The notes below the pieces were generated by a model. It did not search any database. It had not been told where the DNA came from and saw only the letters and a list, made by a program, of their open reading frames with translations. A stretch of DNA of 64,000 nucleotides, from NCBI GenBank assembly GCA_027459725.1, contig DAIDHK010000006.1, positions 1,895 to 65,894 of the forward strand. Reading direction: 5' to 3'. The position numbers and the translations under genes are program-made. The stretch comes from Candidatus Levyibacteriota bacterium. Lineage in GTDB: Bacteria > Patescibacteriota > Microgenomatia > Levybacterales > UBA12049. The first letter of the stretch is position 1; the number at the start of each line of letters is the position of its first letter. This document shows, piece after piece, positions 6,455-52,475 of this stretch.

Positions 6455-6500
6455 ATATTTAACATTTGTTCTTTATGAAATATAATTACTACTGATTTTT

Positions 6501-7476: not shown

Positions 7477-7479
7477 AGT

Positions 7480-9474
7480 TTAAACCGTTAATCTGTACTG
7501 TTTGTCAAGTTTTTCAACCTCACTGGCTGGTAGAACATATTCGGTGTTTTCATCAAAAGTTCTTTTTATCATACAAATGATCGCGCCAGTTAGTCCGATT
7601 ATTGCAAACAGAGTAGCTTGCCAGACCATAGCCAAACCAAACAGGAAAAGAAAAGCGGCCAGATAAATACCCATCGCTGTATTTTTTGGTAATACAATAT
7701 CTTCATATATAATGGGTGATTTATTTTTCTGCTTTTTCATCTCCCAGTAAGCATCACGGCTGTGAACCTGAGGGATGACGGGGAAGTTATAAAAGGGAAT
7801 GGGTGAGGGTGTTGACCACTCCAGCGAACGTCCATTCCAGGGATCACCAGTTGTATCGCGCAGTTGCCTGCGGTTTTTAATACTTACGATTAACTGAACC
7901 ACCTGTAAAATCACAGCTACAACTATAATTAATGCACCAATTAGTGAGACCAAAAAAAGGTATTGCCACCCAGTTGAAGGAGAGTAATGGTCCATACGGC
8001 GCGTGGCTCCCATCATACCTAGAATATATAACGGAACGAAAGAAGCGAAAAAACCGACTAGCCAGGTCCAAAAGACATATTTACCTAGTTTCTCATCCAG
8101 TTTAAAACCGGTAATTTTAGGAAACCAATATGTAATTCCGGCAAAAATACCAAACAAAGCTCCACCCACAATCATTGTATGGAAATGGGCAACTAAAAAT
8201 AAACTATTGTGTATTTGAAAATCTACTGGGGGGAGTGCCATCAACATACCAGCCATTCCACCAAATGTAAATGTACTTATAAAGCCAAAGAACCAATAAA
8301 TTGGGGAATAATACCTTATACGTCCACGAAACATTGTAAGGAGCCAGTTTACGATTTGAACTCCTGTAGGAATACCTATATACATAGTCATGATGCCAAA
8401 AAAAGCATTTACATCAGCACCGGCGCCCATGGTAAAAAAATGATGCAGCCAGACAGTGAATGACAATAGGGTAATTAAGCCAGCCGCTGCTACTAGGGAT
8501 GGGTAGCCAAATACTTTTTTCTGAGCAAAAGTTGATACTACTTCAGAATAAATACCAAAAGCGGGAATGATCAGAACATACACTTCAGGATGTCCCCACA
8601 TCCAGATTAAATTCCAATACATCATCTGATTACCGGCATTGTTCAGTGTGAAAAAATGCATTCCCAGATAACGATCAACAGTTAAAAGAGCAATAGTCAT
8701 AGCAAGGATTGGGAAGATGGAAATAACTAACAACATGCTCATCAGAGAAGTCCAGGTAAACATTGGCATACGCATAAGACTCATGCCTGGAGCTCGCATC
8801 TTAAGAATAGTTACTACGAAATTTATACCTCCGATGAGTGTTCCTAAACCAGAAATTTGCAAGCTCCAGATCCAATAATTTACCCCAGTCCCAGGTTGAA
8901 ATTGAAGCTCGGATAAAGGAGCAACAGCTAGCCATCCAGTGGCTGCAAACTCTCCACCTAACACAAAAAACATGTTAATTAATATTGCTCCTGCAACGTA
9001 TAACCAGAAACCTAATGAATTTAGAAAAGGAAAGGCAAGATCGCGCGCGCCGATTTGTAGAGGGACGATTAAATTTATTAACCCAAACAGAAAGCCCATG
9101 GTAACAAAGAAAACCATGATATCGCCATGAGCAGTAAAGATTTGCTGGAAGTGATTAGCATCAAGATAGCCGTGTTTTGCTCCAAGAACTCCTGGGCCAA
9201 CAGTTAGAACCTGCTGTGAGAAAAGCATAAGAGCATCCAGTCCTCCTCTTACAAACATCAAAAATGCCATGATAAGATACATGACGCCGATTTTTTTAGG
9301 GTCAGTGGAGGTAAGCCAATTTTTCCATAACCATCTCCAGCGCTTTGTTATAGTTAAAAAAACAGCAGCCGCACCTAACATGGTAAAAATAGCTCCGGTG
9401 CCACCTATGGTAAACCACTGGTGCGGAAGATCTGCCCAAGTAAGTTGACCAATGATAAAAGATTTCCAATTCAT
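7480..9474 (-). CDS. cyoB: Haem-copper quinol oxidase subunit I
   Basis: 664 aa; WMWGHPEVYVLIIPAFG and the conserved His-rich helices of HCO subunit I. Confidence 0.9.
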   Translation of the reverse strand: MNWKSFIIGQLTWADLPHQWFTIGGTGAIFTMLGAAAVFLTITKRWRWLWKNWLTSTDPKKIGVMYLIMAFLMFVRGGLDALMLFSQQVLTVGPGVLGAKHGYLDANHFQQIFTAHGDIMVFFVTMGFLFGLINLIVPLQIGARDLAFPFLNSLGFWLYVAGAILINMFFVLGGEFAATGWLAVAPLSELQFQPGTGVNYWIWSLQISGLGTLIGGINFVVTILKMRAPGMSLMRMPMFTWTSLMSMLLVISIFPILAMTIALLTVDRYLGMHFFTLNNAGNQMMYWNLIWMWGHPEVYVLIIPAFGIYSEVVSTFAQKKVFGYPSLVAAAGLITLLSFTVWLHHFFTMGAGADVNAFFGIMTMYIGIPTGVQIVNWLLTMFRGRIRYYSPIYWFFGFISTFTFGGMAGMLMALPPVDFQIHNSLFLVAHFHTMIVGGALFGIFAGITYWFPKITGFKLDEKLGKYVFWTWLVGFFASFVPLYILGMMGATRRMDHYSPSTGWQYLFLVSLIGALIIVVAVILQVVQLIVSIKNRRQLRDTTGDPWNGRSLEWSTPSPIPFYNFPVIPQVHSRDAYWEMKKQKNKSPIIYEDIVLPKNTAMGIYLAAFLFLFGLAMVWQATLFAIIGLTGAIICMIKRTFDENTEYVLPASEVEKLDKQYRLTV

Positions 9475-9482
9475 ATTTAGTT

Positions 9483-10394
9483 TTACATTTGCATATCTTG
9501 CATAGAATTGTTTGGCTTCATATGAGGATATGAGGTGGGAGCCATGTAGTTCATTATAACCGAAGTAAAAAGATTATTTACAGGTGAAGAATAAGTTATG
9601 GGGGATACGTTTTCAGTGGGTTGCGTTAGTTGATTAAATACAGACCGATTTAACTCTATGGAGTTTTGTTTAACGTTATATACCCATTTATTAAATTCTG
9701 TTTGGGATACAGATATTGTGATAAATTTCATCTCCGAAAATCCCTTGCCATTTATCTCCGTGTCTGTTCCATAAAACTGTCCCGTGGTGTTAGCCATTAA
9801 ATGTGTTTGCGTGGACATACCTGACATAGCATAGATTTGTCCACCCAGCTGGGGAATCCAGAAAGATGTCATAGGAGACTGGTCAGCTGTTAGTTCGAAC
9901 TGAACAGGAGTTTTCTCAGGTATCTCCAGTAAGTTAAGTGAAGCTATACCTAGTTTGGGATAAACAAATAGCCATTTCCAGCGTAACGCGATAACCTGGA
10001 CGGTGAGAGGTTGATTGATGGAAGCAATAGATTGACTGGGGTCTAAGCGATGTGTATAGTTCCAGTTAATAAAACCCATCGTACTGACCATAAAGATTGT
10101 AAAAGCCCACCAGAAAATCTGAATGCCATGATTATGATCCCATTCGGGCAAATATTTTGCCTCACTATTGGACTCTCTATATTTTATTGCGACAAAAATA
10201 GCGAAAATAAAAACCGGTACAATAACAATCGACATCATAATAAGGGCAATAAACATTAATTGTCTTTCCTGGACAGCAATTATTCCTTCTGGGTTGAGAA
10301 CGGCAAAATTATAGTTATGTAGTAAGATCCAGCCTATCAGGATAACATCAAAGATAATGAATGAAGAGATAAGAAGTCTAGCAAAGTATTTCAT
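9483..10394 (-). CDS. cyoA: Quinol oxidase subunit II (CuA-less)
   Basis: 303 aa, two N-terminal TM helices plus a cupredoxin-like domain. No Cys residues where the CuA site H..C.E.C..H..M would lie, so it is quinol-oxidising (bo3/aa3-600 type) rather than cytochrome-c-oxidising. Confidence 0.8.
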   Translation of the reverse strand: MKYFARLLISSFIIFDVILIGWILLHNYNFAVLNPEGIIAVQERQLMFIALIMMSIVIVPVFIFAIFVAIKYRESNSEAKYLPEWDHNHGIQIFWWAFTIFMVSTMGFINWNYTHRLDPSQSIASINQPLTVQVIALRWKWLFVYPKLGIASLNLLEIPEKTPVQFELTADQSPMTSFWIPQLGGQIYAMSGMSTQTHLMANTTGQFYGTDTEINGKGFSEMKFITISVSQTEFNKWVYNVKQNSIELNRSVFNQLTQPTENVSPITYSSPVNNLFTSVIMNYMAPTSYPHMKPNNSMQDMQM

Positions 10395-14360: not shown

Positions 14361-15659
14361 ATGCGAATTGAAGAATTAGAAAAAAAGATTTATGTTTGCT
14401 TGGATGAACTAGCACACGATGATGGTTTCAATGCCTCGGGAAAAAGTGAGGTTTTCGGCTGCATCTTCGGTCGGGATAGTTTCATTACTATATTAAAGCT
14501 TCTGCGGACTCTGAAAGTACGTCCGGATGGCAAATTACTGTCCACTTGCAAGAAGAGTTTACTCAAACATATAGAGTTGCAGGGAAAAAATTTAAACATC
14601 GAGAGTGGGGAACAGCTAGGGAAATTTATTCATGAATATAGAGTAGACAAATATGAAAGATTAACCGCTCGTAGAAAACCTTGGTATGTCTATCCGGACA
14701 AAATATTGCGTAATTACGACAGTATAGATGCTACACCGCTGGGTTTGATCGCGATTTATCGTTATTGGGAGTTGACCAATGATGGCCATTTCTTACTAAC
14801 TGTTTTACCTTCTGTCGAAAAAGGTTTGAACTGGATTATGTCTTATGGGGATATGGATAAGGATTATCTGCTGGAATATTCTTTACCTGCAGAGCGTCTC
14901 CATGGAGGTCTTGCAGTTCAATCCTGGGCTGACTCTATTCCATCTCTAGCTGATACAGCAGGAAAGTTACCTGATTACCCTATAGCACCCGTAGAGGTAC
15001 AGGGTATAGCGTGGTTAGCTCTCAGATTATGGTCTAATTATTTTTCCGGTGCTTATAAAGAGACTCAAAATATCCGGTTTAGTAAAAAACTAAGATTATT
15101 TGCAGATAAAATGAAAAAGCGTTTTAATAGAATGTTTTTAATGAGCACCTCTGAGGGTTTATTTCTTGCTCAAGCATTGGATGGACATAAAAGACAAGTC
15201 AGAACAGTAACATCACATCCTCTGATTTGTCTGTGGTCGGCCATTGAAGAAAATGATCACTATGAATCAATAATTGATGAAGTGTATATAAATTCAATCG
15301 TACATCGTGCGTTTGAAACGGATTTATTTGTCCCTGGTGCGGGAATGCGTACTATGAGCACTAAATCATCGACATTTGATCCAACTGAGGCTTCTTATCA
15401 TAATGGCAGCTTCTGGCCTATGCTTAATGGTTTGATTATTGAAGGTTTGCATAATTTTGATTATTTTACAGAGGCAGCTAAATTGAGTAATGCTAGCTTA
15501 TCTGCACTGCAGTATTTTGGTCTGCCTATTGAATTATACATTCAAAATGAGGGTAAATTTTCAATTTACAGAAATCCCCTCAGCGGTCAGCAAAGCTGTT
15601 TAAATCAGGCGTGGTCAGCTGCTTCTGCATATGATTTATTGCTTTCTGTGATAAAATAA
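14361..15659 (+). CDS. Six-hairpin glycosidase, amylo-alpha-1,6-glucosidase (GDE_C)/GH63-like
   Basis: 432 aa; DATPLGLIAIYRYWELTNDGHFL and YHNGSFWPMLNGLIIEGL are characteristic of debranching-enzyme-like or mannosyl/glucosyl-glycerate hydrolase-like (alpha/alpha)6 barrels. Confidence 0.6.
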   Translation: MRIEELEKKIYVCLDELAHDDGFNASGKSEVFGCIFGRDSFITILKLLRTLKVRPDGKLLSTCKKSLLKHIELQGKNLNIESGEQLGKFIHEYRVDKYERLTARRKPWYVYPDKILRNYDSIDATPLGLIAIYRYWELTNDGHFLLTVLPSVEKGLNWIMSYGDMDKDYLLEYSLPAERLHGGLAVQSWADSIPSLADTAGKLPDYPIAPVEVQGIAWLALRLWSNYFSGAYKETQNIRFSKKLRLFADKMKKRFNRMFLMSTSEGLFLAQALDGHKRQVRTVTSHPLICLWSAIEENDHYESIIDEVYINSIVHRAFETDLFVPGAGMRTMSTKSSTFDPTEASYHNGSFWPMLNGLIIEGLHNFDYFTEAAKLSNASLSALQYFGLPIELYIQNEGKFSIYRNPLSGQQSCLNQAWSAASAYDLLLSVIK

Positions 15660-15723
15660 TTTCCTCTTGCGCTATTCTTACTTGGTTATGTTTTAAATCT
15701 TAAGCCACAAAAGTATACTGCTG

Positions 15724-16854
15724 ATGTTTATGAGAATTGCACAAATAGCACCTCCTTACGAAAGTGTGCCTCCGAAAAAATATGGGGGGACAGAAAGGAT
15801 TGTGTCTGCTCTTACAGAAGAACTCGTAAAAAGGGGTCATGATGTTACTTTATTTGCCAGTGGGGATTCTTCCACTTCAGCACGTTTGATCTCGACTTTT
15901 TCCAGGGGTATAAGAGAAGAATTTCCGCATGATATGAATCCTTTTGATGATGCCCAAAGGACCATGGCTTTTGTACAGCACTTGGTAAAAGTATATAAAA
16001 TGGCTGGTCAGTTTGATATCATACATGATCATACTACGTTGCGCAGTTTGCCTCTGGGACTTGCGTTTGGACAATATAGTAAGGTCCCGGTGATATCTAC
16101 CTTACATGGAGTATTAAGCGAAAATAATATTAAAAATTACGAAAATCTTAATAGGGCCTATCTGGTGGCCATCTCTGAATCTCAAAAAAGACCCGCTCCT
16201 GATTTAAACTATATTGCTACTGTTTATAATGGGCTTGATATGGCAAAGTATCCTTTTTGTGATAAGCCTGGTGACTACTTATTACATGTTGGACGTATTA
16301 GTCATCTGAAAGGTGTACATCATGCAATTTCCATTGCTAAAAAGTTAGGCCTTCCCTTAATTATTGCTGCCAAACTTGATGAGATTGATAAACCATATTA
16401 TGAAGAGAAAGTTAAACCCTTTATTGATGGTCGGCAAATTAGGTGGGTAGGAGAGGTTAGTGAAGATGAAAGAAATATATTGATGGCCAATGCCTTATGC
16501 TTTATGCATTCATTGGAATGGGAAGAGCCATTTGGTTTAACTTTGATAGAATCAATGGCTACTGGCACTCCTGTTGCAGCTTTTAATCATGGATCAATGC
16601 CTGAAATTATTCAGCAGGGCAAGACTGGTTGGATAGCTGATTCGGAAGACGAGTTGGCGGAGCTAATTAAAAATAATGCCTACAGTATAAATCGTCATTA
16701 TTGCAGATCTTATGCTTTAAGAAAGTTCAGTGCCAAAAGAATGGTCAATGATTATGAAATGATTTATGAAAGTATTGTGGGAGCTGAACAATTTCCAACA
16801 TTATGGTACCGAAGACATCAAGTCAAACAACTTAATTTATCTGACAATAATTAG
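15724..16854 (+). CDS. Glycosyltransferase family 4 (GT-B, retaining)
   Basis: IAPPYESVPPKKYGGTERIVSALTEELVKRGHDVTLFASGDS at the N-terminus; EEPFGLTLIESMATGTPV (E-x7-E region) in the C-terminal domain. Confidence 0.8.
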   Translation: MFMRIAQIAPPYESVPPKKYGGTERIVSALTEELVKRGHDVTLFASGDSSTSARLISTFSRGIREEFPHDMNPFDDAQRTMAFVQHLVKVYKMAGQFDIIHDHTTLRSLPLGLAFGQYSKVPVISTLHGVLSENNIKNYENLNRAYLVAISESQKRPAPDLNYIATVYNGLDMAKYPFCDKPGDYLLHVGRISHLKGVHHAISIAKKLGLPLIIAAKLDEIDKPYYEEKVKPFIDGRQIRWVGEVSEDERNILMANALCFMHSLEWEEPFGLTLIESMATGTPVAAFNHGSMPEIIQQGKTGWIADSEDELAELIKNNAYSINRHYCRSYALRKFSAKRMVNDYEMIYESIVGAEQFPTLWYRRHQVKQLNLSDNN

Positions 16855-27422: not shown

Positions 27423-28169
27423 TTATACAATTTCACCTTTGTAATGCCCATAAGGATAATTAAATTTTTTTGTGTCATATACAAGTCCATGTTTCTTGAT
27501 GTATAGGTAAGTTCGTAGCCAAAATATGAGCAAACCGACTACACCTTTCTCTCTGGCTCGTCTTGGGGAATGAAAAACTTTCAGGGAAAAGAAAAAATGA
27601 GGTTTGGCTCCTGATAATAATGATCTATTTCCGTAATCAGTGTCTTCACCTAGAATAGCTTTTTCATCGAATCCATTTATTTTTATATGATTCCTTTTTG
27701 TTGTAAAAATAAATCCTGCTCCCACTGTGGGATGAAGAAGATAAATTATAATTATAATTGGATATGCAATAGCTAAAAATAAATTATCTAAAAAACGTTT
27801 ACTTGCAGTCCATACTAGCACCATAGAAATAAAATCTTCTTTGGGTTCAGTTTTATATAAAAGTCTGGCTATAAAATTATCTGACAGGATCATATCGGCA
27901 TCTAAAAACAAAATATACTTATATTTTGAGTGTTTAGCTCCTATATTTCGTTGGTGTCCTGTGCTTCTTTTTGCTGTAAATATTGATAGGTTTTTTAATC
28001 TTTGTTTAAAATTCTCTGCGACTTGTAAGGTTCTATCGTCTGAGTGTCCATCAACAATTAATACTTCAAATTTATCCGGTAAATTTTGCTTTTGTATGGA
28101 TTGTAGAGTTTTGGCTAAATAATGTTCTTCATTATAAGTGGGAATAATAATAGATAATTCATTAATCAC
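27423..28169 (-). CDS. Glycosyltransferase family 2
   Basis: LSIIIPTYNEE, LIVDGHSDDRT, FLDADM (DxD), 248 aa with a C-terminal hydrophobic segment. A dolichyl/polyprenyl-phosphate sugar synthase-like fold. Confidence 0.75.
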   Translation of the reverse strand: MINELSIIIPTYNEEHYLAKTLQSIQKQNLPDKFEVLIVDGHSDDRTLQVAENFKQRLKNLSIFTAKRSTGHQRNIGAKHSKYKYILFLDADMILSDNFIARLLYKTEPKEDFISMVLVWTASKRFLDNLFLAIAYPIIIIIYLLHPTVGAGFIFTTKRNHIKINGFDEKAILGEDTDYGNRSLLSGAKPHFFFSLKVFHSPRRAREKGVVGLLIFWLRTYLYIKKHGLVYDTKKFNYPYGHYKGEIV

Positions 28170-33047: not shown

Positions 33048-34517
33048 GTGTTTATACTAATACATATGGACCATAATACAGAAATTAATACATCTGAAAT
33101 TAGTGAACATAATCCTGAATCTCCTGAAAATTCTGAAGCCAATAATCCAATATTTGCGGAAAATAGTTCGATTAATAGGATAGTACCACCCAATGCATTT
33201 AATAGGAGAAGTGAAATTAAAATATATCGTAAAAGGGGTGAAGAAGATGTGGATATTCCAAAAAAGTCGGAGATAAAGTGGGGTAGAAAGATATTCCCGC
33301 TAGCATTATTTGGAACTCATTTGCATCAAAATATTACCAGTAAAGTTACAGGAACAGAGCATACATACAATAGCACTGCTGAAAATGAGTTTCTGGATGC
33401 AAATCCTGCATTGAAACAAAATTGGCCAGAAATATTGGAATATGTAAATGGTAAGACTTCAGAACTTCTAGATCCTGAAGGTAAAAATGTCTGGATTGCC
33501 AAGGTTAGGTTTCTTCTCTCAAAAAATCAATGGCGCGCTGCCCGTGAAATGAATAAAGCGTTAAAGAAAGATGATATTACTGAAGAAGAGTTATCGAAGA
33601 TGTTAAGAGGAATAGATTATGGTAAATCGCTAAATACTTCTTTGGAGTCAAATGGATATATGCTTGATTTTCTTCGTCATAGACGTAAAAGAAAAGCTTT
33701 TGTAGGAAGCACAGCGGAAGCTGATTTGATTGGTTGTTTGGTACTTAAGCCACAATATGCTTGGATAGCTGAAACTTTTAAAACACTGGAAAGTAGTAAA
33801 AATGGAAAATTCAATTTTTTGAACTTTGAAAAATTAAGAGAAGAAGAAATATCTGTGAATATGCCAAATGTTTCAGGTAAAATAGATGTGAGTAAAATTA
33901 GTTACGAAAGTTTTTTTACTCATGTAATAGATGCCATATTAGATGATGGAATTAAATTAGATTTAGTTGAAATCAAGACTGCTTCAATACCTCAAGGTTC
34001 TCAAGTTAACTCGGAAGAAATAAAGAAAAAACATCAACATGATATTTCTCATACATTGCGAGTTTTGTTGAATTTTTTCGGTGGTTTTTATGCTTTAGAA
34101 CGCTTGGATTACGAACTTGAAGCTGATGAAGTACAAAAACATCTTAATGCACTACAACAAGACAATTCAGAAAATGATTCAATATCTGACTTGCAAAAAT
34201 TGAGCGAGAAAATATATACTAATCAGCGATACAAACAAGCAGTTGAAACAAAGCTCAGAAAATTGATTTCAAACATAGATACACATATCATTTCCGTGCT
34301 TATTCCTAATTTAAGATCTGATATTCCAAAAGAAAGAGTTAGGACCGGATTGCTACAGCCTTCAGATTTCGTTGCTATTTTACCCGAAGATGTCTCTATT
34401 GAAAAAATAAGCATAGACTTCAGGGGAGATGAGAGAGTCATAAAAAGTTTTGGAATTGCCGATTATGTCGCTCATTATAGAAGACAGATGCAACCCCCAA
34501 GAGTTTATGCAGCTTGA
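33048..34517 (+). CDS. Large acidic hypothetical protein (orphan, no recognisable domain)
   Basis: 489 aa, no TM or signal peptide, no motif I can assign. The ORF is continuous and sits in a codon-usage-typical region. Confidence 0.4.
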   Translation: MFILIHMDHNTEINTSEISEHNPESPENSEANNPIFAENSSINRIVPPNAFNRRSEIKIYRKRGEEDVDIPKKSEIKWGRKIFPLALFGTHLHQNITSKVTGTEHTYNSTAENEFLDANPALKQNWPEILEYVNGKTSELLDPEGKNVWIAKVRFLLSKNQWRAAREMNKALKKDDITEEELSKMLRGIDYGKSLNTSLESNGYMLDFLRHRRKRKAFVGSTAEADLIGCLVLKPQYAWIAETFKTLESSKNGKFNFLNFEKLREEEISVNMPNVSGKIDVSKISYESFFTHVIDAILDDGIKLDLVEIKTASIPQGSQVNSEEIKKKHQHDISHTLRVLLNFFGGFYALERLDYELEADEVQKHLNALQQDNSENDSISDLQKLSEKIYTNQRYKQAVETKLRKLISNIDTHIISVLIPNLRSDIPKERVRTGLLQPSDFVAILPEDVSIEKISIDFRGDERVIKSFGIADYVAHYRRQMQPPRVYAA

Positions 34518-36241: not shown

Positions 36242-36317
36242 AGAATTTTGGCTGCTTCTTACATATATTTTACAATTCCCACACTTCAATATAAGCTCTA
36301 TAAGCTAATATACAGAG

Positions 36318-37061
36318 GTGAAATTCCGTAAACCTATTTTATATCTAGTTATAATATCTTTCGTATTTACATTTAGTTTTTTTCCGCCATCTATTCTAGC
36401 TCAAACTAAAAATGAGGGTGGACGCAGAATAATAAGACTTGATGCTACTCCTTTTCCTACTACAGAGTTATCACCAAGTCCGTCAGTATCATCTTCTCCC
36501 ACTCCTAGTCCCGATGTTTCTCCGTCACCTTCTCTACAACCATCTCCGAGTGTAGACCCTACGGTAACACCTTCATCGGTACTTATTGATACTCCAACTC
36601 CGTCAAATACACCCTCTGTTACACCCACCCCTTCCGCTCCAACACCCACACCATCTCCTATGAGCCCTACACCAACTCCGGTTCCACCTGTAATTTATCC
36701 ACAATCTGAAGTCACAGTATCACCTACACCTGCTGTATTAGGTATTTCACAACAAACCACTCCAACGCCTCAGTTGCAGATAACTCCTACACCCACTACT
36801 GCTCCCTTGTTGCAAAGGACTTTACCAAAACTTATGGAACTCTTAAATTACGGTAATAAGACTGAGTTTTATGGACAAACAGGTTTTACTACGCAAGAGA
36901 CTAGGGTGCTTGTGTCTGTGGCGCTGTTTCTTCTGTTAGCAGGTATATATTTATTCTACTACGAAAAAATAATTTCATTTTTTAATTATTTACAAAATAA
37001 ATTGTCTTCTATGACTAATGATAGACATCTAGATCATATTGTTTTCCCTTTACATAAATGA
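36318..37061 (+). CDS. Secreted Pro/Thr/Ser-rich low-complexity surface protein with C-terminal TM anchor
   Basis: Signal peptide, about 120 aa of (S/T)P(S/T) repeats, C-terminal hydrophobic anchor VSVALFLLLAGIYLFYY. Confidence 0.5.
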   Translation: MKFRKPILYLVIISFVFTFSFFPPSILAQTKNEGGRRIIRLDATPFPTTELSPSPSVSSSPTPSPDVSPSPSLQPSPSVDPTVTPSSVLIDTPTPSNTPSVTPTPSAPTPTPSPMSPTPTPVPPVIYPQSEVTVSPTPAVLGISQQTTPTPQLQITPTPTTAPLLQRTLPKLMELLNYGNKTEFYGQTGFTTQETRVLVSVALFLLLAGIYLFYYEKIISFFNYLQNKLSSMTNDRHLDHIVFPLHK

Positions 37062-38245
37062 TGAATATGAGAAAGTATATAGGATTAGGTTTAATTATAT
37101 TAGCTGTGATTGTTTTACTTGGAGTGTGGTACATTAATTCTCCTTATAGCTCAACCACTAGAACTTTTTCTGCTTATACCTTACTGAATTCGTCATTTCA
37201 AAAGTATAAATCTCAATTTATTAATTCTGATGGTAGAGTAATTGACTATTCCCAAGGCTCTATTACTACATCAGAAGGTCAAAGTTATGCCATGTTGCGT
37301 GCAGTTTGGACAGATGATACCGTGACATTTGCCAAAGTTTGGAATTGGACAAAAAATGATTTACAGCATAAATCAGGTGATCATTTATTCGAGTGGCGTT
37401 GGGGTAAGCGTAGTGATGGTACTTATGGTGCTTTATCTGGGGGAGGTAATAATAGTGCGACTGATGCGGATGAAGATATTGCTTTGGCATTAATATTAGC
37501 TGGACATCGTTGGAACAACCAGACATATTTAAATGAAGCTGCTCAGATAATACCTGATATTTGGAAGTACGAAACTGCTGAAGCTAATGGACATAGATAT
37601 ATAACCGCTGGAAATTGGGCTGTCAACGGAAATGAAATTGTGATGAACCCATCATATTTTGCTCCTTATGAATATAGAATCTTTGCCAATATTGATACTA
37701 AGGATAATTGGAAGTCGTTGATTAATCCAGGATATCAAATGCTAAACAATGTCGGTAGTGCTGCATTTAATACAGGCTCAGGAGTTGGTTTACCTCCAGA
37801 TTGGTTTACTATGCAGAAAGATAATGGTACTATCAAAGTTGCCTCTATTCCTAATGCAGACAGTAATTATTCGTTTGACGCTATCAGAGTTCCTTTTCGT
37901 GTTGCGCTTGATTATTTCTGGAACAAAGATCCACAGGCGAAAGAGTATCTTCTAAAAAATTATAGTTTTCTGTTAAGTCAGTATGAAAAAACCAATCAGT
38001 TAGTTTCAGGATATACTCACAATGGCAAACCTCTAGATAATAATCAAAATCCTGATATGTACTCAACTAGTATAGGTTATTTTATGATCGCTGATCCGCA
38101 GATAGCTAAGGATATATATAACAACAAGATTATTAAACTATATTCCAATGACAGTAATAGTTTCAATTCCAATCTGGGCTATTACGAACAAAACTGGTTA
38201 TGGTTTGGTGCTGCAATGTATAACAACGCATTGCCTTATTACTAA
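37058..38245 (+). CDS. Glycoside hydrolase family 8 (endo-beta-1,4-glucanase, BcsZ-like)
   Basis: TSEGQSYAML (catalytic Glu region) and SATDADEDIALALILAGHRW (GH8 signature ATDxDxxIAxxLL). N-terminal signal anchor. Confidence 0.75.
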   Translation: MMNMRKYIGLGLIILAVIVLLGVWYINSPYSSTTRTFSAYTLLNSSFQKYKSQFINSDGRVIDYSQGSITTSEGQSYAMLRAVWTDDTVTFAKVWNWTKNDLQHKSGDHLFEWRWGKRSDGTYGALSGGGNNSATDADEDIALALILAGHRWNNQTYLNEAAQIIPDIWKYETAEANGHRYITAGNWAVNGNEIVMNPSYFAPYEYRIFANIDTKDNWKSLINPGYQMLNNVGSAAFNTGSGVGLPPDWFTMQKDNGTIKVASIPNADSNYSFDAIRVPFRVALDYFWNKDPQAKEYLLKNYSFLLSQYEKTNQLVSGYTHNGKPLDNNQNPDMYSTSIGYFMIADPQIAKDIYNNKIIKLYSNDSNSFNSNLGYYEQNWLWFGAAMYNNALPYY

Positions 38246-38247
38246 AT

Positions 38248-39771
38248 ATGGAAAAGTTTAAAGTTAATTATTCCCGTTTACAAAAAAATATTTTAATTCT
38301 CACTATGGCGTGGGGAATAATTTATTATAGTTGGTGGTTTCAATTCTATAATGCGGGTAATTTAATTTTATACTCGTTACTTTTTATTGGGGAGACTTAC
38401 CATATTATCATGGCTTTTCTTTTCTGGCACACTGTCTGGCCAAAACGAAATAAGAATAAAACAATAAACTTGCCTAATGAATTTTTGAAGGAAGCCTCGG
38501 TTGCAATTTTAATTCCAGTTGTTTCAGAGCCTGTATATGTAGTTGAACAGACTATATTACATGCCAAAGCTATTAACTATAAAAATAAAAAAATTTATGT
38601 CTTGAATGATGGTTATGTAGCGTCCAATCCAAATTGGCAGGATTATGAAGAATTGTGTGAACGATTAAGTGTAAAAATAATTACTAGGAGATTACCCGGT
38701 GGTGCAAAAGCGGGTAATATAAATCATGCATTGACCAAGTTAAAAGAGGATTATTTGGCTATTTTCGATGCAGATATGAAGCCAAAAGAGGATTTTTTGA
38801 GTAAGACTATGCTCCATTTTGCAGATAGAAAGGTTGCTTTTGTCCAAACGCCACAATATTATGAAAATTACTCAGAAAATCAAGTTACCATGGGTGCCTG
38901 GGAACAGCAAGATTTTTTCTTTGGACCAATTATGGTTGGTAAAAATCACTATAATGCTTCGTTTCTTTGTGGGACTAACTTCGTTATCAGGAAAAAAACA
39001 TTACAGGAAATAGGTGGTTTTAATGAAAAAAATATAGCTGAGGATTTTATTACATCATTGAGGATTCATCAGCAAGGATGGAGGAGTATTTATGTCCCAG
39101 AGGTTTTAGCGAGTGGGTATGCGCCATTTGATTTAGGCGCATACTACAAACAACAACTCCGGTGGGCAAGAGGCTCGTTGGAAGTATTATTACTGCATAA
39201 TCCATTATTTATACGTCATCTTACTGCCTCTCAGAAGTTGCAGTATTTATCATCAGCGCTTTTCTATTTTAATGGGGTAGTGGTGCTAATTGATATGGTA
39301 ATTCCTCTGCTATTTTTATTTTTTGGCTTACAACCGGTAGGAGTCTCGACAACCCAATTTTCGTTATATTTTATACCTTATATTTTATTAAGCCTATACA
39401 ATATTTATCAGGTTTCGGACGGCACGATTACTTTTCGGTCATTTTCTTTCACTCAATCAAGTTTCTATCTACAATTAGTTGCTCTGTGGTCTATTTTAAC
39501 CGGTAAAAAAATGGGGTTTGTGGTTACTGATAAAGAACAGAAAGTGGGAAGAAGTTATCTTATGTTATGTTTACCTCATTTTATGTATATCGCGATCTCT
39601 GTATTTGCAATCTCTTGGGGTTATTTCAACCGAGGGTTAAATCCTGCTTTTATTGCAAATGTTGCATGGGTACTATTTAATGTAGTTCTATTTATACCAT
39701 TTATATTATCTAGCATAAGTTGGAAAAAATCTATTAATATTAATAAATCATTCCAAACCTCCTTAACTTAA
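38248..39771 (+). CDS. Processive GT2 beta-glycan synthase (cellulose-synthase BcsA-like catalytic subunit)
   Basis: DAD (DxD), FVQTPQ, TEDF-like AEDF, QQLRWARG (QxxRW), flanked by multiple TM helices. Confidence 0.8.
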   Translation: MEKFKVNYSRLQKNILILTMAWGIIYYSWWFQFYNAGNLILYSLLFIGETYHIIMAFLFWHTVWPKRNKNKTINLPNEFLKEASVAILIPVVSEPVYVVEQTILHAKAINYKNKKIYVLNDGYVASNPNWQDYEELCERLSVKIITRRLPGGAKAGNINHALTKLKEDYLAIFDADMKPKEDFLSKTMLHFADRKVAFVQTPQYYENYSENQVTMGAWEQQDFFFGPIMVGKNHYNASFLCGTNFVIRKKTLQEIGGFNEKNIAEDFITSLRIHQQGWRSIYVPEVLASGYAPFDLGAYYKQQLRWARGSLEVLLLHNPLFIRHLTASQKLQYLSSALFYFNGVVVLIDMVIPLLFLFFGLQPVGVSTTQFSLYFIPYILLSLYNIYQVSDGTITFRSFSFTQSSFYLQLVALWSILTGKKMGFVVTDKEQKVGRSYLMLCLPHFMYIAISVFAISWGYFNRGLNPAFIANVAWVLFNVVLFIPFILSSISWKKSININKSFQTSLT

Positions 39772-39778
39772 TTGAAAT

Positions 39779-41323
39779 ATGATCAAACATGAAAAAATAT
39801 CTACTATAACAAGCGGACGAAAATTATTTTATATTTCTTTATGTCTCCTAATTGCAATTTCTATAGGAGTAAATTTAATTACTGTTACTGATCAGTCAAT
39901 TCGTTTAGATGAGTCACAATCATTATGGGCAGCTACCAAATCAGTAACTGGTATATTGAAATATATATCTCAAGATGTACAAGTTCCTTTATATGAATTG
40001 TTATTACATTTTTGGATACAAATCTTTGGAACCAATATTGTTATAGCACGAGGTCTTTCTTTTATTTTTTTTATTTTTACACTACCTGTTTTATACAAAG
40101 TTTACCGTCAGGTCGCGGGTAGGTCAGTCAGTTTATTAGGTGTAACTATTTTTTCTTTATCACCATTTATTCTTTGGTATAGTAACGAGGCACGTATGTA
40201 TACGATGTTTGCCTTAGCAACTAGTCTAGATCATTTGTTTTTCTTAAAGTTGTATAAATCAAAAGGCAAAAATGGCAAGCTAGGATATTTTCTCTCTACC
40301 TTATTTGGAATGTTCTCCCATTACTTCTTTATCTTCTTCTTGTTCACTCAATTTGTGTACGTCATCTTTAGTATTTTTTTAAATCGAAATACAGAAAGTT
40401 TTAAAGCCAAGATTGCTATTAGAAAAAAATTTTTAATTAGTTATATTACAATTTTATTTCTCGATGGTGTTTTTTTCCTTCCATGGGCAGTTTATTTCAT
40501 TTTCCGTGGTTTAGCGGGCAATACACAACCTTTAATACCTCCACCCACATCATATGATATTTTTGCAACATTTATAAATTTTCTTTTTGGCTTCCAGAGT
40601 ACTCAAGTTCAAACCTTGATGGTATCTTTATGGCCACTAATTGTCTTGGTTTTATTTTTTATTTTTACTCGTCGCAATTCGACTCATGTTTTATATAAAG
40701 GATATTTTATTTTGACCGCCTTTTTCCCGATACTTATGATTTTTTTGTTGTCTTTTTTTAAACCAATTTTCTTATCTAGATATCTTATCTTTGTAACTCC
40801 ATCATTATTTTTTATAGTTGCGTGGATTTTATTAAGCTATTCAAAAAAAACTTCCTATATTCTAATTACTATATTTTTAATGTTATTATTAGGCTTATTG
40901 TTTTTTCAAAATTTATCACCGTTTACTCCTGTCAAAGAGAATTATGTGGGAGTATCAGAGTTTCTTGATCAGAAGGCTACAGCATCTGATCTGATTGCTG
41001 TTAGTGCTCCATTTACAATTTATCCTGTTGCATATACTTACAAAGGGGAAGCAGGTATTGTGACTATCCCCAAATGGGATCTTTATAGTCATGGGGCAAT
41101 TCCTGCATTTTCAATAGCAAATTTAAAAACTGACTTGCAATCTTATAAGAAGGAGTATAATAATATTTTCATAGTTTTTTCATACAATCAAGGATACCAA
41201 CAGCAGATCCAGAATTATATGGATACACACTTCAAACGTTTAGTAGCAAAGACATTCTCTCCAGGTTTGGAAGTAGATGAATATCAGCTTAGATATGATC
41301 TATTATCCAATAATAAGCATTAG
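39779..41323 (+). CDS. GT-C-fold polytopic membrane glycosyltransferase (ArnT/PMT-like)
   Basis: 514 aa, more than 10 TM. RLDESQSLW in the first periplasmic loop resembles the DE/DD motif of GT39/GT83-type GT-C enzymes. Confidence 0.5.
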   Translation: MIKHEKISTITSGRKLFYISLCLLIAISIGVNLITVTDQSIRLDESQSLWAATKSVTGILKYISQDVQVPLYELLLHFWIQIFGTNIVIARGLSFIFFIFTLPVLYKVYRQVAGRSVSLLGVTIFSLSPFILWYSNEARMYTMFALATSLDHLFFLKLYKSKGKNGKLGYFLSTLFGMFSHYFFIFFLFTQFVYVIFSIFLNRNTESFKAKIAIRKKFLISYITILFLDGVFFLPWAVYFIFRGLAGNTQPLIPPPTSYDIFATFINFLFGFQSTQVQTLMVSLWPLIVLVLFFIFTRRNSTHVLYKGYFILTAFFPILMIFLLSFFKPIFLSRYLIFVTPSLFFIVAWILLSYSKKTSYILITIFLMLLLGLLFFQNLSPFTPVKENYVGVSEFLDQKATASDLIAVSAPFTIYPVAYTYKGEAGIVTIPKWDLYSHGAIPAFSIANLKTDLQSYKKEYNNIFIVFSYNQGYQQQIQNYMDTHFKRLVAKTFSPGLEVDEYQLRYDLLSNNKH

Positions 41324-41333
41324 GTATATGGAA

Positions 41334-42239
41334 TTATTCACTTTCTTCATTCTCTGAATTGTCGGAATTGCTGATATCTAATTGAGAATAATCTGCTTGC
41401 GGGATTTCACCCTCCATAATCACTGGTAGATTAGACCAGGAATGTTTTATTCTATGATCGGTCAAGCGGTCCTGGGGGAAATTATATGTTTTAATTTTTT
41501 CAGAACGCATACCTCTTCCTACCTGAGTTGACTTAAGGGAGGATATCTGTGAAGTCTGTTTTTCCATCTCCATTTCCCAGAGTTTTGCACGAAGCATTTG
41601 CATTGCTATCTCACGATTTTGTCCTTGAAAGCGTTCTGTACGACAGACTACAACGATTCCGGTTGGCTTATGTACCAAACGCACGGCAGTAGAAACTTTA
41701 TTAACATTCTGCCCTCCATGACCACCTGCCCGAAAAGCTTCAAAATCTATATCATCAGGATTAATATGTAGATCTATATCTTCAAGCTCAGGCAATATCG
41801 AAACAGTAGCGGTTGAGGTATGTACACGTCCACGTTTTTCAGTTTCTGGAACTCTTTGTACTCGGTGTACACCAGCTTCATATTTGAAGCTTTTAAATGC
41901 GTTGAATCCTATGATTTTTATTACACTTTCATCAAGAACCTCGATTTTAAACCCATTTATTTGAGCATAGCGAGAATACATCCTAAGCAATTCTTGTGCC
42001 CATAATTTAGCTTCATCACCACCTGCGGCGCCTTTTGTTTCCAGGATTACATTTCTTTCGTCCAAACCTTCATTAGGCTCTTCTGGTTTCATGGTCTCCA
42101 CAATAGCCTTTTTTTGTGCTTCCAAGTTGGCGATTTCTTCCTTAGCCATATCAGACAAAGAAGCATCTTCCAATAGTGGTATGGTCTCAGCTATTTTTTG
42201 CTCAAGTTCTTGAATTTGAATGTGTCGGTAGTCGGTCAT
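41334..42239 (-). CDS. prfA: Peptide chain release factor 1
   Basis: [23 protein letters not shown] (GGQ) and [17 protein letters not shown] (the RF1-type PxT region; PET here rather than PAT). 301 aa, shorter than typical at the N-terminus. Confidence 0.85.
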
Positions 42240-51179: not shown

Positions 51180-52475
51180 ATGGTCATTGAAGCTACATAT
51201 CCTATTAATTTTCGCAAAGCTGATGCTGCAAGTTTGGGTGAACAAATCAAAAATAGACAATCAGTAGTTTTAATTGGTTTGAAAAGAGTAGGTATCAGTA
51301 ATTTTTTGCGATTTTTTCTCTACCATAAGGATATTCTCTCCACGTATTTAGGTGCAGAAGAAAATCATTTGTTTATTCCTGTTGACTTGCATGATTTAAT
51401 TGAAAGGGAGCTTTTCCCCTTTTGGGTACTTACTTTAAAACGTGTTTGCGATTCAGCCATGGAGTTGCCTCTGGACGATAAGGTCAAGAAACAAATTGAA
51501 TCACAATTCCTCAACAGTATACAAACCAGGAATACATTTATTGTTTTTGATTCTGTGCGCAGTGTGATTATGAAACTATGTGAGTTTGGTTACATGCCTA
51601 CTATTTTCTTCATTCGTTTTGATCGTATGGAGGATGTCATGAATCAAGAATTTTTCTCCAACATTCAAGGACTAAGAGATGCAACGCATCAGCGTTTGTC
51701 CTATGTTTTTACGAGTTTTAAAAGTCTGGATATTTTGTTTCCCGAAATATTTAATAAACAGGCTCTAAATGTGTTTGCTAAAAATATATATCTACAGCCA
51801 GCAGAGGCCAAAGATATTGAAATAATTTATGAGACATATAGTGCAAAATATACTAAGCGAGACTTAAACAAAATAAAGAAGGATTTACTTAATTTGACAG
51901 ATGGTTATGTTCAATTTCTTCAATTAGGGTTGATTGCTCTGCATGAAAAACAATATCCTAAACTTTTACCAGAGGAATTATATGATTTGTTGTTGAATGA
52001 CGAAAGATTTATGCTACAGTCGGAAGAGATTTGGGAAAGTCTGTTACATACCGAGCGTGAAATTCTTCACAAAGTTAGCAACAATGAAGAACTTACTAAT
52101 ATTGAAATGGAAGAAGCTAAATATTTATTTGAAACCGGTATAATAAGGAGGAACTCTAGCCAATTAGAAATTTTCAGCCCCTTATTTCAAGGCTACATCT
52201 CGAGTCTAAAAAATCATACAACTTTAAAGGATGATTCAATAGAATTTTCTAAGAAAGAAAACCAATTGTTAAATCTACTTCTACAATATAAAGAGAATAT
52301 TGTTGATAGAGATCAGATTATCGAATTGGTTTGGCCCGAAGTGGAGTCTTTTGGTGTGACAGACTGGGCGATAGATAGATTAGTCTCTCGATTACGGCGA
52401 AAATTAAGAATGCAAAGATCTAATTACAAGATCAGTACAATCCGCACCCGGGGATACAAACTGACTGTGGTATAG
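51180..52475 (+). CDS. Putative regulator: N-terminal P-loop-NTPase-like domain (degenerate Walker A) + helical region + C-terminal OmpR/PhoB-type winged-helix DNA-binding domain
   Basis: VVLIGLKRVGISNF (GxxxxG[I]S, the Walker A Lys is missing), FFIRFDRMEDV (Walker-B-like). The C-terminal ENQLLNLLLQYKENIVDRDQIIELVW...AIDRLVSRLRRKL...TIRTRGYKL fits the trans_reg_C consensus. Confidence 0.5.
   Translation: MVIEATYPINFRKADAASLGEQIKNRQSVVLIGLKRVGISNFLRFFLYHKDILSTYLGAEENHLFIPVDLHDLIERELFPFWVLTLKRVCDSAMELPLDDKVKKQIESQFLNSIQTRNTFIVFDSVRSVIMKLCEFGYMPTIFFIRFDRMEDVMNQEFFSNIQGLRDATHQRLSYVFTSFKSLDILFPEIFNKQALNVFAKNIYLQPAEAKDIEIIYETYSAKYTKRDLNKIKKDLLNLTDGYVQFLQLGLIALHEKQYPKLLPEELYDLLLNDERFMLQSEEIWESLLHTEREILHKVSNNEELTNIEMEEAKYLFETGIIRRNSSQLEIFSPLFQGYISSLKNHTTLKDDSIEFSKKENQLLNLLLQYKENIVDRDQIIELVWPEVESFGVTDWAIDRLVSRLRRKLRMQRSNYKISTIRTRGYKLTVV

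Follow-up and report, generated by a model that had tools for sequence, protein, structure and literature searches.

Canonical Bcs operons (bcsA-bcsB-bcsZ with or without bcsC, as in type III of Rhodobacter sphaeroides and type II of Escherichia coli) encode a BcsA synthase with the D,D,D,QxxRW signature, a gating loop (FxVTxK), an intrinsic membrane channel and a PilZ domain that provides the c-di-GMP gate, together with a GH8 endoglucanase of the BcsZ family. A review (PMC8892547) describes BcsB as a co-catalytic, tail-anchored subunit essential to canonical BcsA and, for monoderm hosts, the Streptomyces cslA-glxA-cslZ and clostridial ccsA-ccsB-ccsZ systems, in which a BcsA homologue and a dedicated endoglucanase are combined with non-canonical partners. 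In E. coli, BcsG, a polytopic pEtN transferase of the alkaline-phosphatase type, sits on the synthase at the outer face of the membrane and yields pEtN cellulose from a lipid-derived donor, phosphatidylethanolamine. Outer-face polymers are also decorated by GT-C enzymes in three-component lipid-linked glycosylation systems (GtrA/GtrB/GtrC, CsbB-GtcA-YfhO and GacI/J/L).

A large part of bacterial diversity belongs to the Patescibacteria (CPR), whose genomes are very small and whose envelope chemistry is, to our knowledge, almost unknown. Here we analysed a four-gene operon in a 64,000-nucleotide stretch of DNA (the window) from a tiny uncultured Patescibacteria-type bacterium with a single-membrane cell. 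With a probability of about 0.6, the operon serves the synthase-dependent production of a cellulose-type (beta-1,4-glucan) surface polymer in single-membrane Patescibacteria; the gene set, the domain identities, the conservation of motifs and module, the lack of PilZ and BcsB and the natural fusions are observed, and the polymer, the physical complex, the donor and acceptor of the GT-C enzyme and the role of gene 1 are what we infer.

Layout and gene content of the locus

The preliminary description had reported four tightly packed, co-directional genes, and all four open reading frames were indeed found where it had placed them, on the + strand and overlapping or at most 7 nt apart. Gene 1 and the GH8 gene overlap by 4 nt (37058-37061), 2 nt separate the GH8 gene from the GT2 gene and 7 nt the GT2 gene from the GT-C gene. 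Apart from these spacers the cluster has a single intergenic gap, 76 nt located 5' of gene 1, with a weak promoter-like site on the + strand (TTGGCT-17-TACAAT, 36248..36276, 9/12 match); across the region the number of such sites was not above that in shuffled sequences.

As in the canonical Bcs operons, a GH8 gene of the BcsZ family shares the operon with a synthase of BcsA fold, whereas BcsB, BcsC and BcsQ/E/F/G are lacking and the invariant partner is a GT-C enzyme. No BcsB-family Pfam match was obtained in the cluster genes or in the other window ORFs scanned (all but ~13 smaller ones), and no recurrent BcsB-sized family was seen in 80 related loci. The locus resembles the Streptomyces and clostridial systems in its monoderm host, BcsA homologue, dedicated endoglucanase and non-canonical partners, but differs from them in having no GlxA-type copper oxidase, BcsB homologue or acyltransferases, a GlxA domain being found neither in the cluster nor in recurrent neighbours. 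The passages of PMC8892547 consulted on Gram-positive cellulose systems mention no GT-C partner, and in the cellulose literature searched we found no description of a synthase with an obligate, sometimes fused, partner of this kind.

The BcsA-like synthase and the GH8 glucanase

By its best sequence and fold matches, the 507-aa product of gene 3 (38248..39771, + strand; PF13632, PF13641, PF03552) is a BcsA-like processive GT2 synthase, for which a membrane channel function is predicted. Two N-terminal TM helices are followed by a GT-A domain, interface helices and C-terminal TM helices; compared with canonical BcsA, two N-terminal helices are missing. The best solved relatives by sequence were BcsA chains (E ~1e-54 to 6e-55), the alignment to BcsA running from residue ~85-97 to ~565-577. 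A Foldseek search with the AF2 model (pLDDT 86) likewise returned BcsA on top (9b8v_E, E 2.7e-27, TMq 0.84), with plant CesA and hyaluronan synthases ranking lower, and the BcsA-BcsG complex structures 9fmz and 9b8v were among the best fold matches.

Inspection of the sequence gave the following synthase motifs, all on the + strand: NDG (N120-D121-G, 38605-38613), DAD (D174-A-D176, 38767-38775), QTPQ (Q200-T-P-Q203, 38845-38856), AED (A264-E-D266, 39037-39045), QQLRW (Q302-Q-L-R-W306, 39151-39165) and the gating loop FVVTDK (F424-V-V-T427-D-K429, 39517-39534). Among 76 family members, D121, D174, D176, Q200, P202, Q203, E265, D266, Q302, R305 and W306 are 100% conserved, as are the F, T and K of the gating loop, and A264 is conserved in at least 90%. 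The full processive motif set claimed earlier is thus present, with a core that does not vary in the family.

The family nevertheless has its own variants at the substrate-contacting motifs, where Asn replaces the first Asp of DDG and Ala the Thr of TED (NDG for DDG, AED for TED), F(L/I)CGTN stands for FFCGS and GAKAGN (GAKAGNIN) for HAKAGN, so that the linkage or the sugar could differ from that of BcsA. The product might then be a different beta-linked polymer, for instance a beta-1,3-glucan, a mixed-linkage glucan or an amino-sugar polymer, on which the GH8 enzyme would act; the GH8 family also comprises chitosanases, lichenases and xylanases. In the same direction, the synthase scores 291 bits against the cellulose-synthase model TIGR03030 (CelA; model positions 63-556 of 714), below its cut-off of 699, and 211 bits against NF008558 (cut-off 992), a shortfall that we attribute largely to the missing PilZ and N-terminal segments. 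BcsA-type models are, however, by far the best match (the PgaC model gives 81 bits and NodC 35 bits), and the fold search places hyaluronan and chitin synthases much further away. Together with the cellulase-type neighbours described below, this makes a different polymer improbable.

That no PilZ domain is apparent at the C-terminus also held when checked: the protein ends 15-17 residues past the last helix in a tail that is disordered in the AF2 model, the CelA-model alignment stops at 556/714, and from the short tail and this end point we conclude that PilZ is missing. The 120 top homologues are all 484-543 aa long. Having no PilZ, the synthase would not be gated by c-di-GMP as canonical BcsA is.

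Gene 2 (37058..38245, + strand) encodes a 395-aa protein of the GH8 endoglucanase family (PF01270, E 2.7e-49), anchored in the membrane by a signal-anchor helix at its N-terminus (within residues 1 to ~27). Its assignment to the family of BcsZ is confirmed by PF01270 and by the match to the BcsZ model NF008305 (155 bits over model positions 27-355 of 378, below the cut-off of 299); matches among solved structures include CelA (1cem, E 1.8e-28), CMCax (1wzz) and BcsZ (3qxf). E73, in a TSEG motif, is the putative general acid, and Clostridium thermocellum CelA has matching motifs at the aligned positions of D136-A-D-E-D140 and D274 (FDAIR). E73, D136, D138, D140 and D274 are conserved in at least 93% of the family.

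Conservation of the module and the GT-C partner

Related loci were picked by similarity to this GT2 subfamily, with genes called simply as longest ORFs, and the figures given here describe the subfamily and not all Patescibacteria. The GT2 and GT-C genes were adjacent in 79/79 loci whose flanks allowed the test (in three of them once the ORF calls had been corrected by hand), with a median gap of -3 nt. The GT2 gene came first in 66 and the GT-C gene in 10 of the 76 automatically scored pairs, and the two were never separated. In addition, a GH8 gene lay upstream in 76 of 77 testable loci, and reverse look-ups from GT-C homologues recovered the same neighbours. With practically all related loci that we examined showing the same set, the GH8/GT2/GT-C arrangement is far beyond chance. 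Hosts of the module belong to several Patescibacteria classes and to some Actinomycetota (Geodermatophilaceae).

Furthermore, GT2 and GT-C form one polypeptide of ~1000 aa in three independent lineages, each a 50%-identity cluster of its own (P0253, P0270 and P0284), all retaining NDG, KAGN, FDAD, Q[T/S]PQ, QQxRW and the GT-C motif LDESQS. Every motif checked was present in P0270; P0253 gave no match to the gating-loop pattern and P0284 none to the [T/A]ED pattern. The P0253 fusion ORF was found in independent NCBI and Logan assemblies. A GT-C::GH6 fusion is encoded in one lineage (P0288). The adjacency in 79/79 loci, the lack of any separated pair and the fusions in three clusters argue for coupling of GT2 and GT-C.

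A GH6 gene flanks the module in ~27 related loci, and GH5 and a second GH8 adjoin it in others. For GH6 we know of beta-1,4-glucanase activities only; the Streptomyces CslZ belongs to this family. The upstream GH8 gene, the nearby GH6, GH5 and second GH8 genes and the GT-C::GH6 fusion point to a beta-1,4-glucan as the product, and three cellulase-type families next to the module speak against the other polymers considered above. Because GH8, GH6 and GH5 are classical cellulase families, the cluster might also be read as catabolic, with the GH8 enzyme as a cellulase that digests cellulose from the environment for nutrition and both glycosyltransferases as unrelated neighbours. We consider this very improbable: the GH8 enzyme carries a membrane anchor, its gene is translationally coupled to that of a processive synthase, all three genes stay together in nearly every locus with GT-C fused to GT2 or GH6 in some lineages, and no recurrent sugar-uptake or cellodextrin-utilisation genes lie nearby. 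The presence of GH8, GH6 and GH5 in CPR genomes should therefore be taken only with caution as a sign of cellulose degradation, as here they belong to a biosynthetic operon.

Gene 4 (39779..41323, + strand) encodes a 514-aa membrane glycosyltransferase whose fold match confirms that the fourth gene is a GT-C enzyme and not BcsB or BcsC. The predicted topology comprises ~11-13 TM helices and a C-terminal extracytoplasmic alpha/beta domain of ~110 aa. Alignment and model place the first-outer-loop motif L43-D44-E45-S-Q47 (39905-39919, + strand) immediately behind TM1, within a short helix of the loop (model residues 43-52); among 73 locus-derived members the conservation of L43-D44-E45-x-Q47 is 91-97%, a 40-sequence alignment (A2) shows no variation in it, and the loop-1 D-E pair and other polar positions are 90-100% conserved. 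The conserved loop-1 motif, the conserved polar positions and the GT-C fold suggest that the enzyme is likely catalytically active. Its only NCBIfam match was NF052499, the MT1671/Rv1635c-type mannosyltransferase (E 2.5e-8, 33 bits); with 33 bits lying far below the cut-off of 900, the protein is related only remotely and falls outside that family, although it shares the fold class, and probably the donor class, of these actinobacterial polysaccharide GT-C enzymes.

The missing BcsB raises the question of whether the GT-C protein replaces it as a structural partner without catalytic function, stabilising the synthase and guiding the chain off the membrane with its acidic loop bound to the glucan. 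The obligate adjacency and the fusions would fit such a role, as would the absence of BcsB or a recurrent BcsB-sized family from the window cluster and related loci, given that canonical BcsA depends on BcsB (PMC8892547). We nevertheless regard it as rather unlikely, since the family keeps the D-E motif of loop 1 together with many polar TM residues that characterise active GT-C enzymes, and the recurrent polyprenyl-P-sugar synthase and GtrA-like neighbours would be without a role were the protein inert.

These neighbours are frequent: a GtrB/ArnC/AglJ-like GT2 (polyprenyl-P-sugar synthase), with or without a GtrA-type TM domain, adjoins the module in ~35/80 loci and in a fusion locus (L083), and GtrB-like and GtrA-like genes lie beside GT-C for example in L061, L056 and L083. 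From this we propose a lipid-linked sugar as the donor. No clear polyprenyl-P-sugar synthase was found in or near the cluster of this window, where GtrB and GtrA are not part of the cluster and the nearest GT2 (27423-28169) best matches TIGR04283, not ArnC/GtrB-type models. The lipid carrier is normally the donor, not the acceptor, of GT-C enzymes. The earlier suggestion of a lipid carrier as the glycosylated acceptor was accordingly corrected; the carrier as donor also fits the GtrB/ArnC-like neighbours in relatives. In many related loci the polyprenyl-P-sugar synthase, the GtrA-type module and GT-C co-occur as in Gtr-type systems, but here GT-C is locked or fused to a processive synthase, whereas theirs acts on a Wzy- or ABC-exported polymer.

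Gene 1 and the proposed surface pathway

Gene 1 (36318..37061, + strand, GTG start) encodes a 247-aa tail-anchored, Pro/Thr/Ser-rich membrane protein, for which Pfam and NCBIfam searches returned no family match. A cleavable signal peptide (residues 1-29; KFRK, hydrophobic core, S-I-L-A|Q) precedes a low-complexity stalk (residues 44-168, 36447..36821, + strand) in which Pro, Thr and Ser account for 28%, 20% and 18% of the residues (66% together). Beyond the stalk come a juxtamembrane motif that is conserved, L..L...(F/Y)Y....(S/T)..T (residues ~170-193), a single C-terminal TM helix (~194-216) and a cytoplasmic tail of ~30 aa. The name "PT-rich surface protein" therefore stands as far as composition, signal peptide and TM anchor are concerned, yet there is no globular domain. 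An HMM of the C-terminal 85 aa detected homologues in ~24 related loci, where they immediately precede GH8 with two exceptions: in L004 the homologue lies downstream of GT-C, and in L072 the match falls inside the GH8 ORF itself. A homologue was also detected in L082. Further loci encode a protein of the same architecture (signal peptide and C-terminal TM). Of all parts of the module, gene 1 is conserved least and is detectable in only ~1/3 of related loci; the conservation of its position and architecture supports its inclusion in the proposed pathway.

The stalk invites the idea that the GT-C enzyme is a PMT-like protein O-glycosyltransferase acting on it and on other secreted proteins, and that it travels with the synthase since glycoprotein and glucan share one surface layer. 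The closest fold matches do include protein O-mannosyltransferases, and PMT_2 gives a single 31-bit match (residues 70-209). We hold this to be unlikely, as GT-C accompanies GT2 in all testable loci, with fusions of the two in three lineages, while gene 1 is detectable in about a third, and a role connected with glucan is suggested by the GT-C::GH6 fusion. Moreover, no sequence match to any solved PMT was obtained, even by profile, and Pfam detected no MIR-type luminal domain; membership in the GT39 PMT family was rejected on these results together with the single 31-bit match, the public "family 39" labels being automatic annotations.

In the favoured cellulose-type pathway, the synthase would polymerise UDP-glucose in the cytoplasm and thread the chain through its own channel, working without BcsB. 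The GT-C enzyme would be its obligate partner, probably in physical contact, with the active site on the outer membrane face, and could add side residues from a polyprenyl-phosphate-linked sugar to the emerging glucan or, less likely, couple the glucan to an acceptor. This would be similar in concept to BcsA-BcsG, with a GT-C fold in place of the pEtN transferase and a polyprenyl-P-sugar in place of phosphatidylethanolamine. The anchored GH8 enzyme may cut or edit the chain as BcsZ does. The gene 1 product might be a lineage-variable accessory subunit that docks in the complex by its juxtamembrane and TM segment while its stalk reaches through the wall. A wall-associated polymer and an exopolysaccharide are equally possible. 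The near-invariant GH8-GT2-GT-C module, both kinds of fusion, the GH6/GH5 cellulases and the polyprenyl-P-sugar synthases strengthen the initial proposal of a non-canonical beta-glucan or glycoconjugate pathway.

More tentatively, the synthase and GT-C could act as one two-active-site machine (a single polypeptide in some lineages) making a side-chain-substituted or covalently anchored beta-1,4-glucan, for example on the PT-rich stalk or the wall. Such a polymer would be a core component of the Patescibacteria envelope that is widely conserved, has so far gone unrecognised and is shared horizontally with some Actinomycetota. As the module is kept intact across many Patescibacteria classes, it is likely important for the surface and hence for host attachment. 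For the cellulose field, it would represent a natural minimal cellulose-type system, with no PilZ, BcsB or outer-membrane parts, and a GT-C glycosyltransferase would be new as an obligate partner. The fusion proteins might offer a structural handle on the hand-over of the nascent glucan from the synthase channel to a modifying enzyme. The module is also within experimental reach, because cultured Geodermatophilus and Klenkia strains carry it.

Organisation of the cluster and its proteins

The four ORFs of the preliminary description were recovered at exactly its coordinates, all on the + strand. They encode a Pro/Thr/Ser (PT)-rich protein (gene 1, 36318-37061, 247 aa, GTG start), a GH8 protein (gene 2, 37058-38245, 395 aa), a BcsA-like GT2 (gene 3, 38248-39771, 507 aa) and a GT-C protein (gene 4, 39779-41323, 514 aa). 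Genes 1 and 2 overlap by 4 nt, the two following junctions measure 2 nt and 7 nt, and the sole intergenic gap is the 76 nt upstream of gene 1. This gap contains a promoter-like site, which is weak evidence; in the promoter/terminator scan the count of such sites in the region was not above that in shuffled sequence. The genes upstream, encoding a DsbD-thioredoxin fusion, a 489-aa protein and a Kef-type Na+/H+ exchanger, are all unrelated to the cluster, and the next gene downstream, for a peptide-chain release factor (41334-42239, -), lies on the opposite strand. GC content is even across the window, thus there is no sign of a recent insertion.

For the GT2, the best family model was that of the cellulose synthase catalytic subunit (TIGR03030, 291 bits, E 1.4e-86), of which only positions 63-556 of 714 are covered; the PgaC (81 bits) and NodC (35 bits) models scored far below it. 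Its best solved relatives are BcsA of Rhodobacter and of E. coli (E ~1e-54 to 6e-55), to which it aligns over BcsA residues ~97-577, the core that starts with the final two N-terminal helices and stops short of PilZ. The AF2 model (pLDDT 86) superposed on BcsA with a TM-score of 0.84 in the fold search, in which plant CesA, hyaluronan synthases and chitin synthases all ranked below BcsA. The processive synthase motifs named in the preliminary description are present as DAD, QTPQ and QQLRW, together with the gating loop FVVTDK, while family-wide departures from BcsA comprise NDG in place of DDG, AED in place of TED, GAKAGNIN in place of HAKAGN and F(L/I)CGTN in place of FFCGS. We regard a different polymer as the GT2 product as improbable. 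The C-terminus, at residue 507, lies only ~15 residues past the last helix, so the protein lacks a PilZ domain, as had been suspected from the sequence; since all of the best 120 database homologues are 484-543 aa long, this absence is a family trait. The genome behind the window is of Patescibacteria type. The window GT2 is 100% identical to the database entry P0001, and the closest named homologues among the matches listed come from Levybacteria and 'Patescibacteria group' MAGs.

The GH8 protein matched PF01270 (E 2.7e-49) and aligned end to end with the BcsZ equivalog model at 155 bits, under the model cut-off. Its solved relatives include C. thermocellum CelA, Komagataeibacter CMCax and enterobacterial BcsZ, and E73 (TSEG), an identical DADEDIALAL block and D274 align with the CelA catalytic motifs, each with a conservation of 93% or more across 75 homologues. 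An N-terminal hydrophobic helix serves as its membrane anchor.

Placement of the GT-C came solely through fold comparison of a predicted structure, as neither the single sequence nor a 40-sequence profile gave a sequence match to solved structures. The first outer loop carries the motif L-D44-E45-S-Q, which is 91-97% conserved among 73 locus homologues and invariant in the 40-sequence alignment; further conserved polar and aromatic positions are R91, SPF128-130, RMY139-141, HYFF181-184, RY334-335 and D404. This conservation pattern argues for an active enzyme and not a relic. A GT-C acting as a non-catalytic substitute for BcsB, a subunit that is missing from the recurrent neighbours of related loci, is thus an unlikely alternative, slightly more so than the protein O-glycosylation considered below.

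Conservation of the module and fusion proteins

At least 581 GT2 relatives emerged when one genome per species was scanned. The best 80 loci were kept, a sample chosen by likeness to the GT2 subfamily of the window and with mechanically called ORFs. The loci span Levy-, Shapiro-, Blackburn-, Dojka- and Doudnabacteria, WWE3, Gracilibacteria, Saccharimonadia and Paceibacteria, and also include cultured Actinomycetota. A syntenic relative, L001 (GCA_027459745.1), is 85% identical and was used in place of the window locus, exact look-up of the window GT2 and of P0001 having given no recorded contig. Many MAGs in the scan are titled 'uncultured Gammaproteobacteria'. We judge these labels doubtful, because their sequences match the GT2 most closely of all those scanned (47-53% identity) and a rough neighbour-joining tree without support values puts them amid sequences labelled Microgenomates. 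MAG taxonomy labels are unreliable.

Iterative searches of six-frame ORFs placed the GT-C directly beside the GT2 in 79 of the 79 loci with enough flank, a count that includes three apparent exceptions, corrected by hand, in which ORFs of high-GC genomes had been called too long. An upstream GH8 gene is present in 76 of 77 loci. Of the 76 pairs scored automatically, 66 begin with the GT2 and 10 with the GT-C, and the two genes always stay together. When GT-C homologues served as the starting point, the same neighbourhood was returned with independent gene calls and Pfam labels.

The GH8-GT2-GT-C set is also found in Klenkia, Geodermatophilus, Quadrisphaera and 'Streptomyces sp. NP160' (loci L060, L067, L071, L074, L076, L058 and L049). 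These actinobacterial loci have GT4 and GtrB-like genes upstream, and those of Geodermatophilus a GH6 gene downstream. In the same tree, which included three actinomycete sequences, those of Klenkia (L060) and Geodermatophilus (L071, L074) nest within Patescibacteria, beside a Saccharimonadales sequence, which hints at horizontal transfer between the episymbionts and a host phylum.

Clustering of all neighbours revealed two recurrent families beyond the triad. GH6 (PF01341) stands immediately beside the module in ~27 loci, its position being taken by GH5 or a second GH8 in others. The second family consists of small GT2 proteins, many of them with a fused GtrA/DPMS transmembrane domain, in ~35 loci, the actinobacterial ones included. 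In NCBIfam they best fit polyprenyl-phosphate sugar synthases, namely ArnC (189 bits over the full length), AglJ, PgfS, dolichyl-P-hexose transferase and PpgS. BcsB-like, PilZ, GGDEF/EAL and GlxA-like families were not among the recurrent neighbours of the related loci. In the window cluster itself GH6 and the small GtrB-like GT2/GtrA genes are absent; a GT2 at 27423-28169, considered as the missing polyprenyl-P-sugar synthase, was set aside as not convincingly GtrB-like, having no GtrA-type transmembrane domain and TIGR04283 as its best model. In some relatives (L055:3911-5488; L083:8995-9474) a cytidylyltransferase-like domain (PF01467) is either part of the polyprenyl-P-sugar synthase/GtrA gene or encoded after it, a hint that such lineages add another substituent, one that is CDP-activated.

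Of the 1733 proteins that the GT-C family profile retrieved at E <= 1e-30 from 1.84 billion cluster representatives, three (P0253, P0270 and P0284, from loci L083, L084 and L085 of other Patescibacteria lineages) are ~1000-aa proteins with the GT-C in the C-terminal half and, according to Pfam, a BcsA-like GT2 in the N-terminal half, 32-37% and 43-47% identical to the respective window proteins. All three keep NDG, KAGN, FDAD, Q[T/S]PQ and QQxRW as well as the GT-C motif LDESQS; by exact pattern, P0253 misses only the gating loop and P0284 only [T/A]ED. The halves are joined by linkers of ~20-35 residues. GT-C proteins typically start in the cytoplasm, and on this assumption the topology fits, since the GT2 would end in the cytoplasm where PilZ of BcsA sits and the GT-C would begin there. 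The P0253 ORF occurs in an NCBI MAG and again in Logan assemblies independent of it, which argues against an assembly artefact; in its locus the gene order is GtrB-like GT2, GH8, GT2::GT-C, cytidylyltransferase and GtrA-like. In P0288 (793 aa), a further protein of another Patescibacteria lineage, Pfam shows a GT-C whose C-terminus, on the outer face, continues into a GH6 cellulase domain (GT-C::GH6). Together, the GT2::GT-C and GT-C::GH6 fusions are the strongest evidence that synthase, GT-C and beta-1,4-glucanase would form one working machine. The opposite reading, in which the cellulase-type genes make the cluster catabolic, was rejected and is highly improbable.

Proposed function and relation to known systems

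Our preferred reading, with a probability of roughly 0.6, is a beta-glucan synthase module whose coupled GT-C glycosylates the glucan. At the gene level it is based on a BcsA-core synthase without PilZ or BcsB, an invariant and sometimes fused GT-C with conserved catalytic-type residues, a membrane-anchored GH8, and cellulase-family and lipid-sugar-synthase neighbours in relatives. Of its parts, a beta-glucan synthase module functionally coupled to the GT-C is likely, and that the GT-C specifically glycosylates the glucan is put forward tentatively. The GT2 would make and export beta-1,4-glucan free of c-di-GMP control, the GT-C would sit against it and use a polyprenyl-P-sugar to substitute the emerging chain, and the GH8 would trim the chain. 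Coupling of the chain to an acceptor by the GT-C seems less likely than substitution.

The module would work like the bacterial cellulose synthase (Bcs) system at its core, but it fails three of the defining features, namely PilZ, BcsB and the curated model cut-offs. E. coli BcsA-BcsG offers a precedent for a modifying enzyme docked on the synthase, although the enzyme class differs from GT-C. The relatives of the module match the logic of three-component glycosylation systems, a GT-C plus GtrB/GtrA; such systems are not known to be joined to a processive synthase. The individual genes already carry the public database labels 'cellulose synthase (UDP-forming)' and, for the GT-C, 'glycosyltransferase family 39'. 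In the searchable literature we found no paper on cellulose synthase in Patescibacteria, on the BcsA-GT-C pairing, or on the module or its fusions, which is not proof of absence, and the passages retrieved from a 2021 Bcs review and a 2020 operon survey mention neither the pairing nor a Patescibacteria cellulose synthase. The module is also unlike both Gram-positive variants on record, Streptomyces CslA-GlxA-CslZ and clostridial CcsABZ (PMC8892547).

The PT-rich protein and other genes of the window

Gene 1 has no family match in Pfam or NCBIfam and no globular domain. It consists of a signal peptide (KFRK, a hydrophobic core and SILA|Q), a stalk of 125 residues with 66% Pro+Thr+Ser, and a C-terminal part with a short conserved juxtamembrane motif, one transmembrane helix (~194-216) and a ~30-residue tail. 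An HMM of the C-terminal 85 residues, run on the fetched loci, found homologues in ~24 loci, almost all directly upstream of GH8; the exceptions are one downstream of the GT-C and a match inside the GH8 ORF of L072. The HMM also matches in L082, and the architecture of signal peptide and C-terminal transmembrane helix was seen in further loci. On these matches, gene 1 is a real, fast-evolving gene that belongs to the module in certain lineages only. It would dock by its transmembrane and juxtamembrane segment, by analogy. That the GT-C serves protein O-glycosylation of the PT-rich stalk is an unlikely alternative; in relatives the GT-C is fused to the synthase and to a cellulase domain.

In L001 the public call of the gene 1 homologue (8420-8818, 132 aa) is truncated, and only the full ORF (8060-8818, 252 aa) takes in the signal peptide and PT-rich stalk; gene calling may go wrong systematically for low-complexity stalk proteins of this kind. 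A GtrB-like GT2 of a fusion-bearing relative (L083:3623-4786) has a C-terminal extension ending in '...SWIYDREPTTKAATGTLLLISFLCVLVG', loosely like the juxtamembrane-plus-transmembrane motif of gene 1 and without a match to the gene 1 HMM.

Near the cluster, the release factor is just 301 aa long and its PCRF match begins at profile position 43, its N-terminus thus being shorter than usual. The 489-aa protein (33048-34517, +), without a Pfam match, is flanked by the DsbD-thioredoxin fusion on one side and the Na+/H+ exchanger on the other, and holds the same position in L001. Elsewhere, a 431-aa protein (51180-52475, +) has a C-terminal OmpR-type winged-helix DNA-binding domain (residues 353-428), with neither a receiver domain nor another Pfam match in its first ~350 residues. 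A haem-copper oxidase gene set (5600-10394, -) combines genes for subunit I (COX1, 664 aa, E 1.5e-135) and for subunit II, whose COX_ARM motif is typical of quinol oxidases, with one for a UbiA-family prenyltransferase that may be haem O synthase; since respiratory oxidases are unusual in Patescibacteria, the set may serve to scavenge oxygen or point to adaptation to an oxic environment. Finally, an amylo-alpha-1,6-glucosidase-like (GDE_C) gene followed by a GT4 glycosyltransferase gene (14361-16854, +) may represent a separate glucan or compatible-solute pathway.
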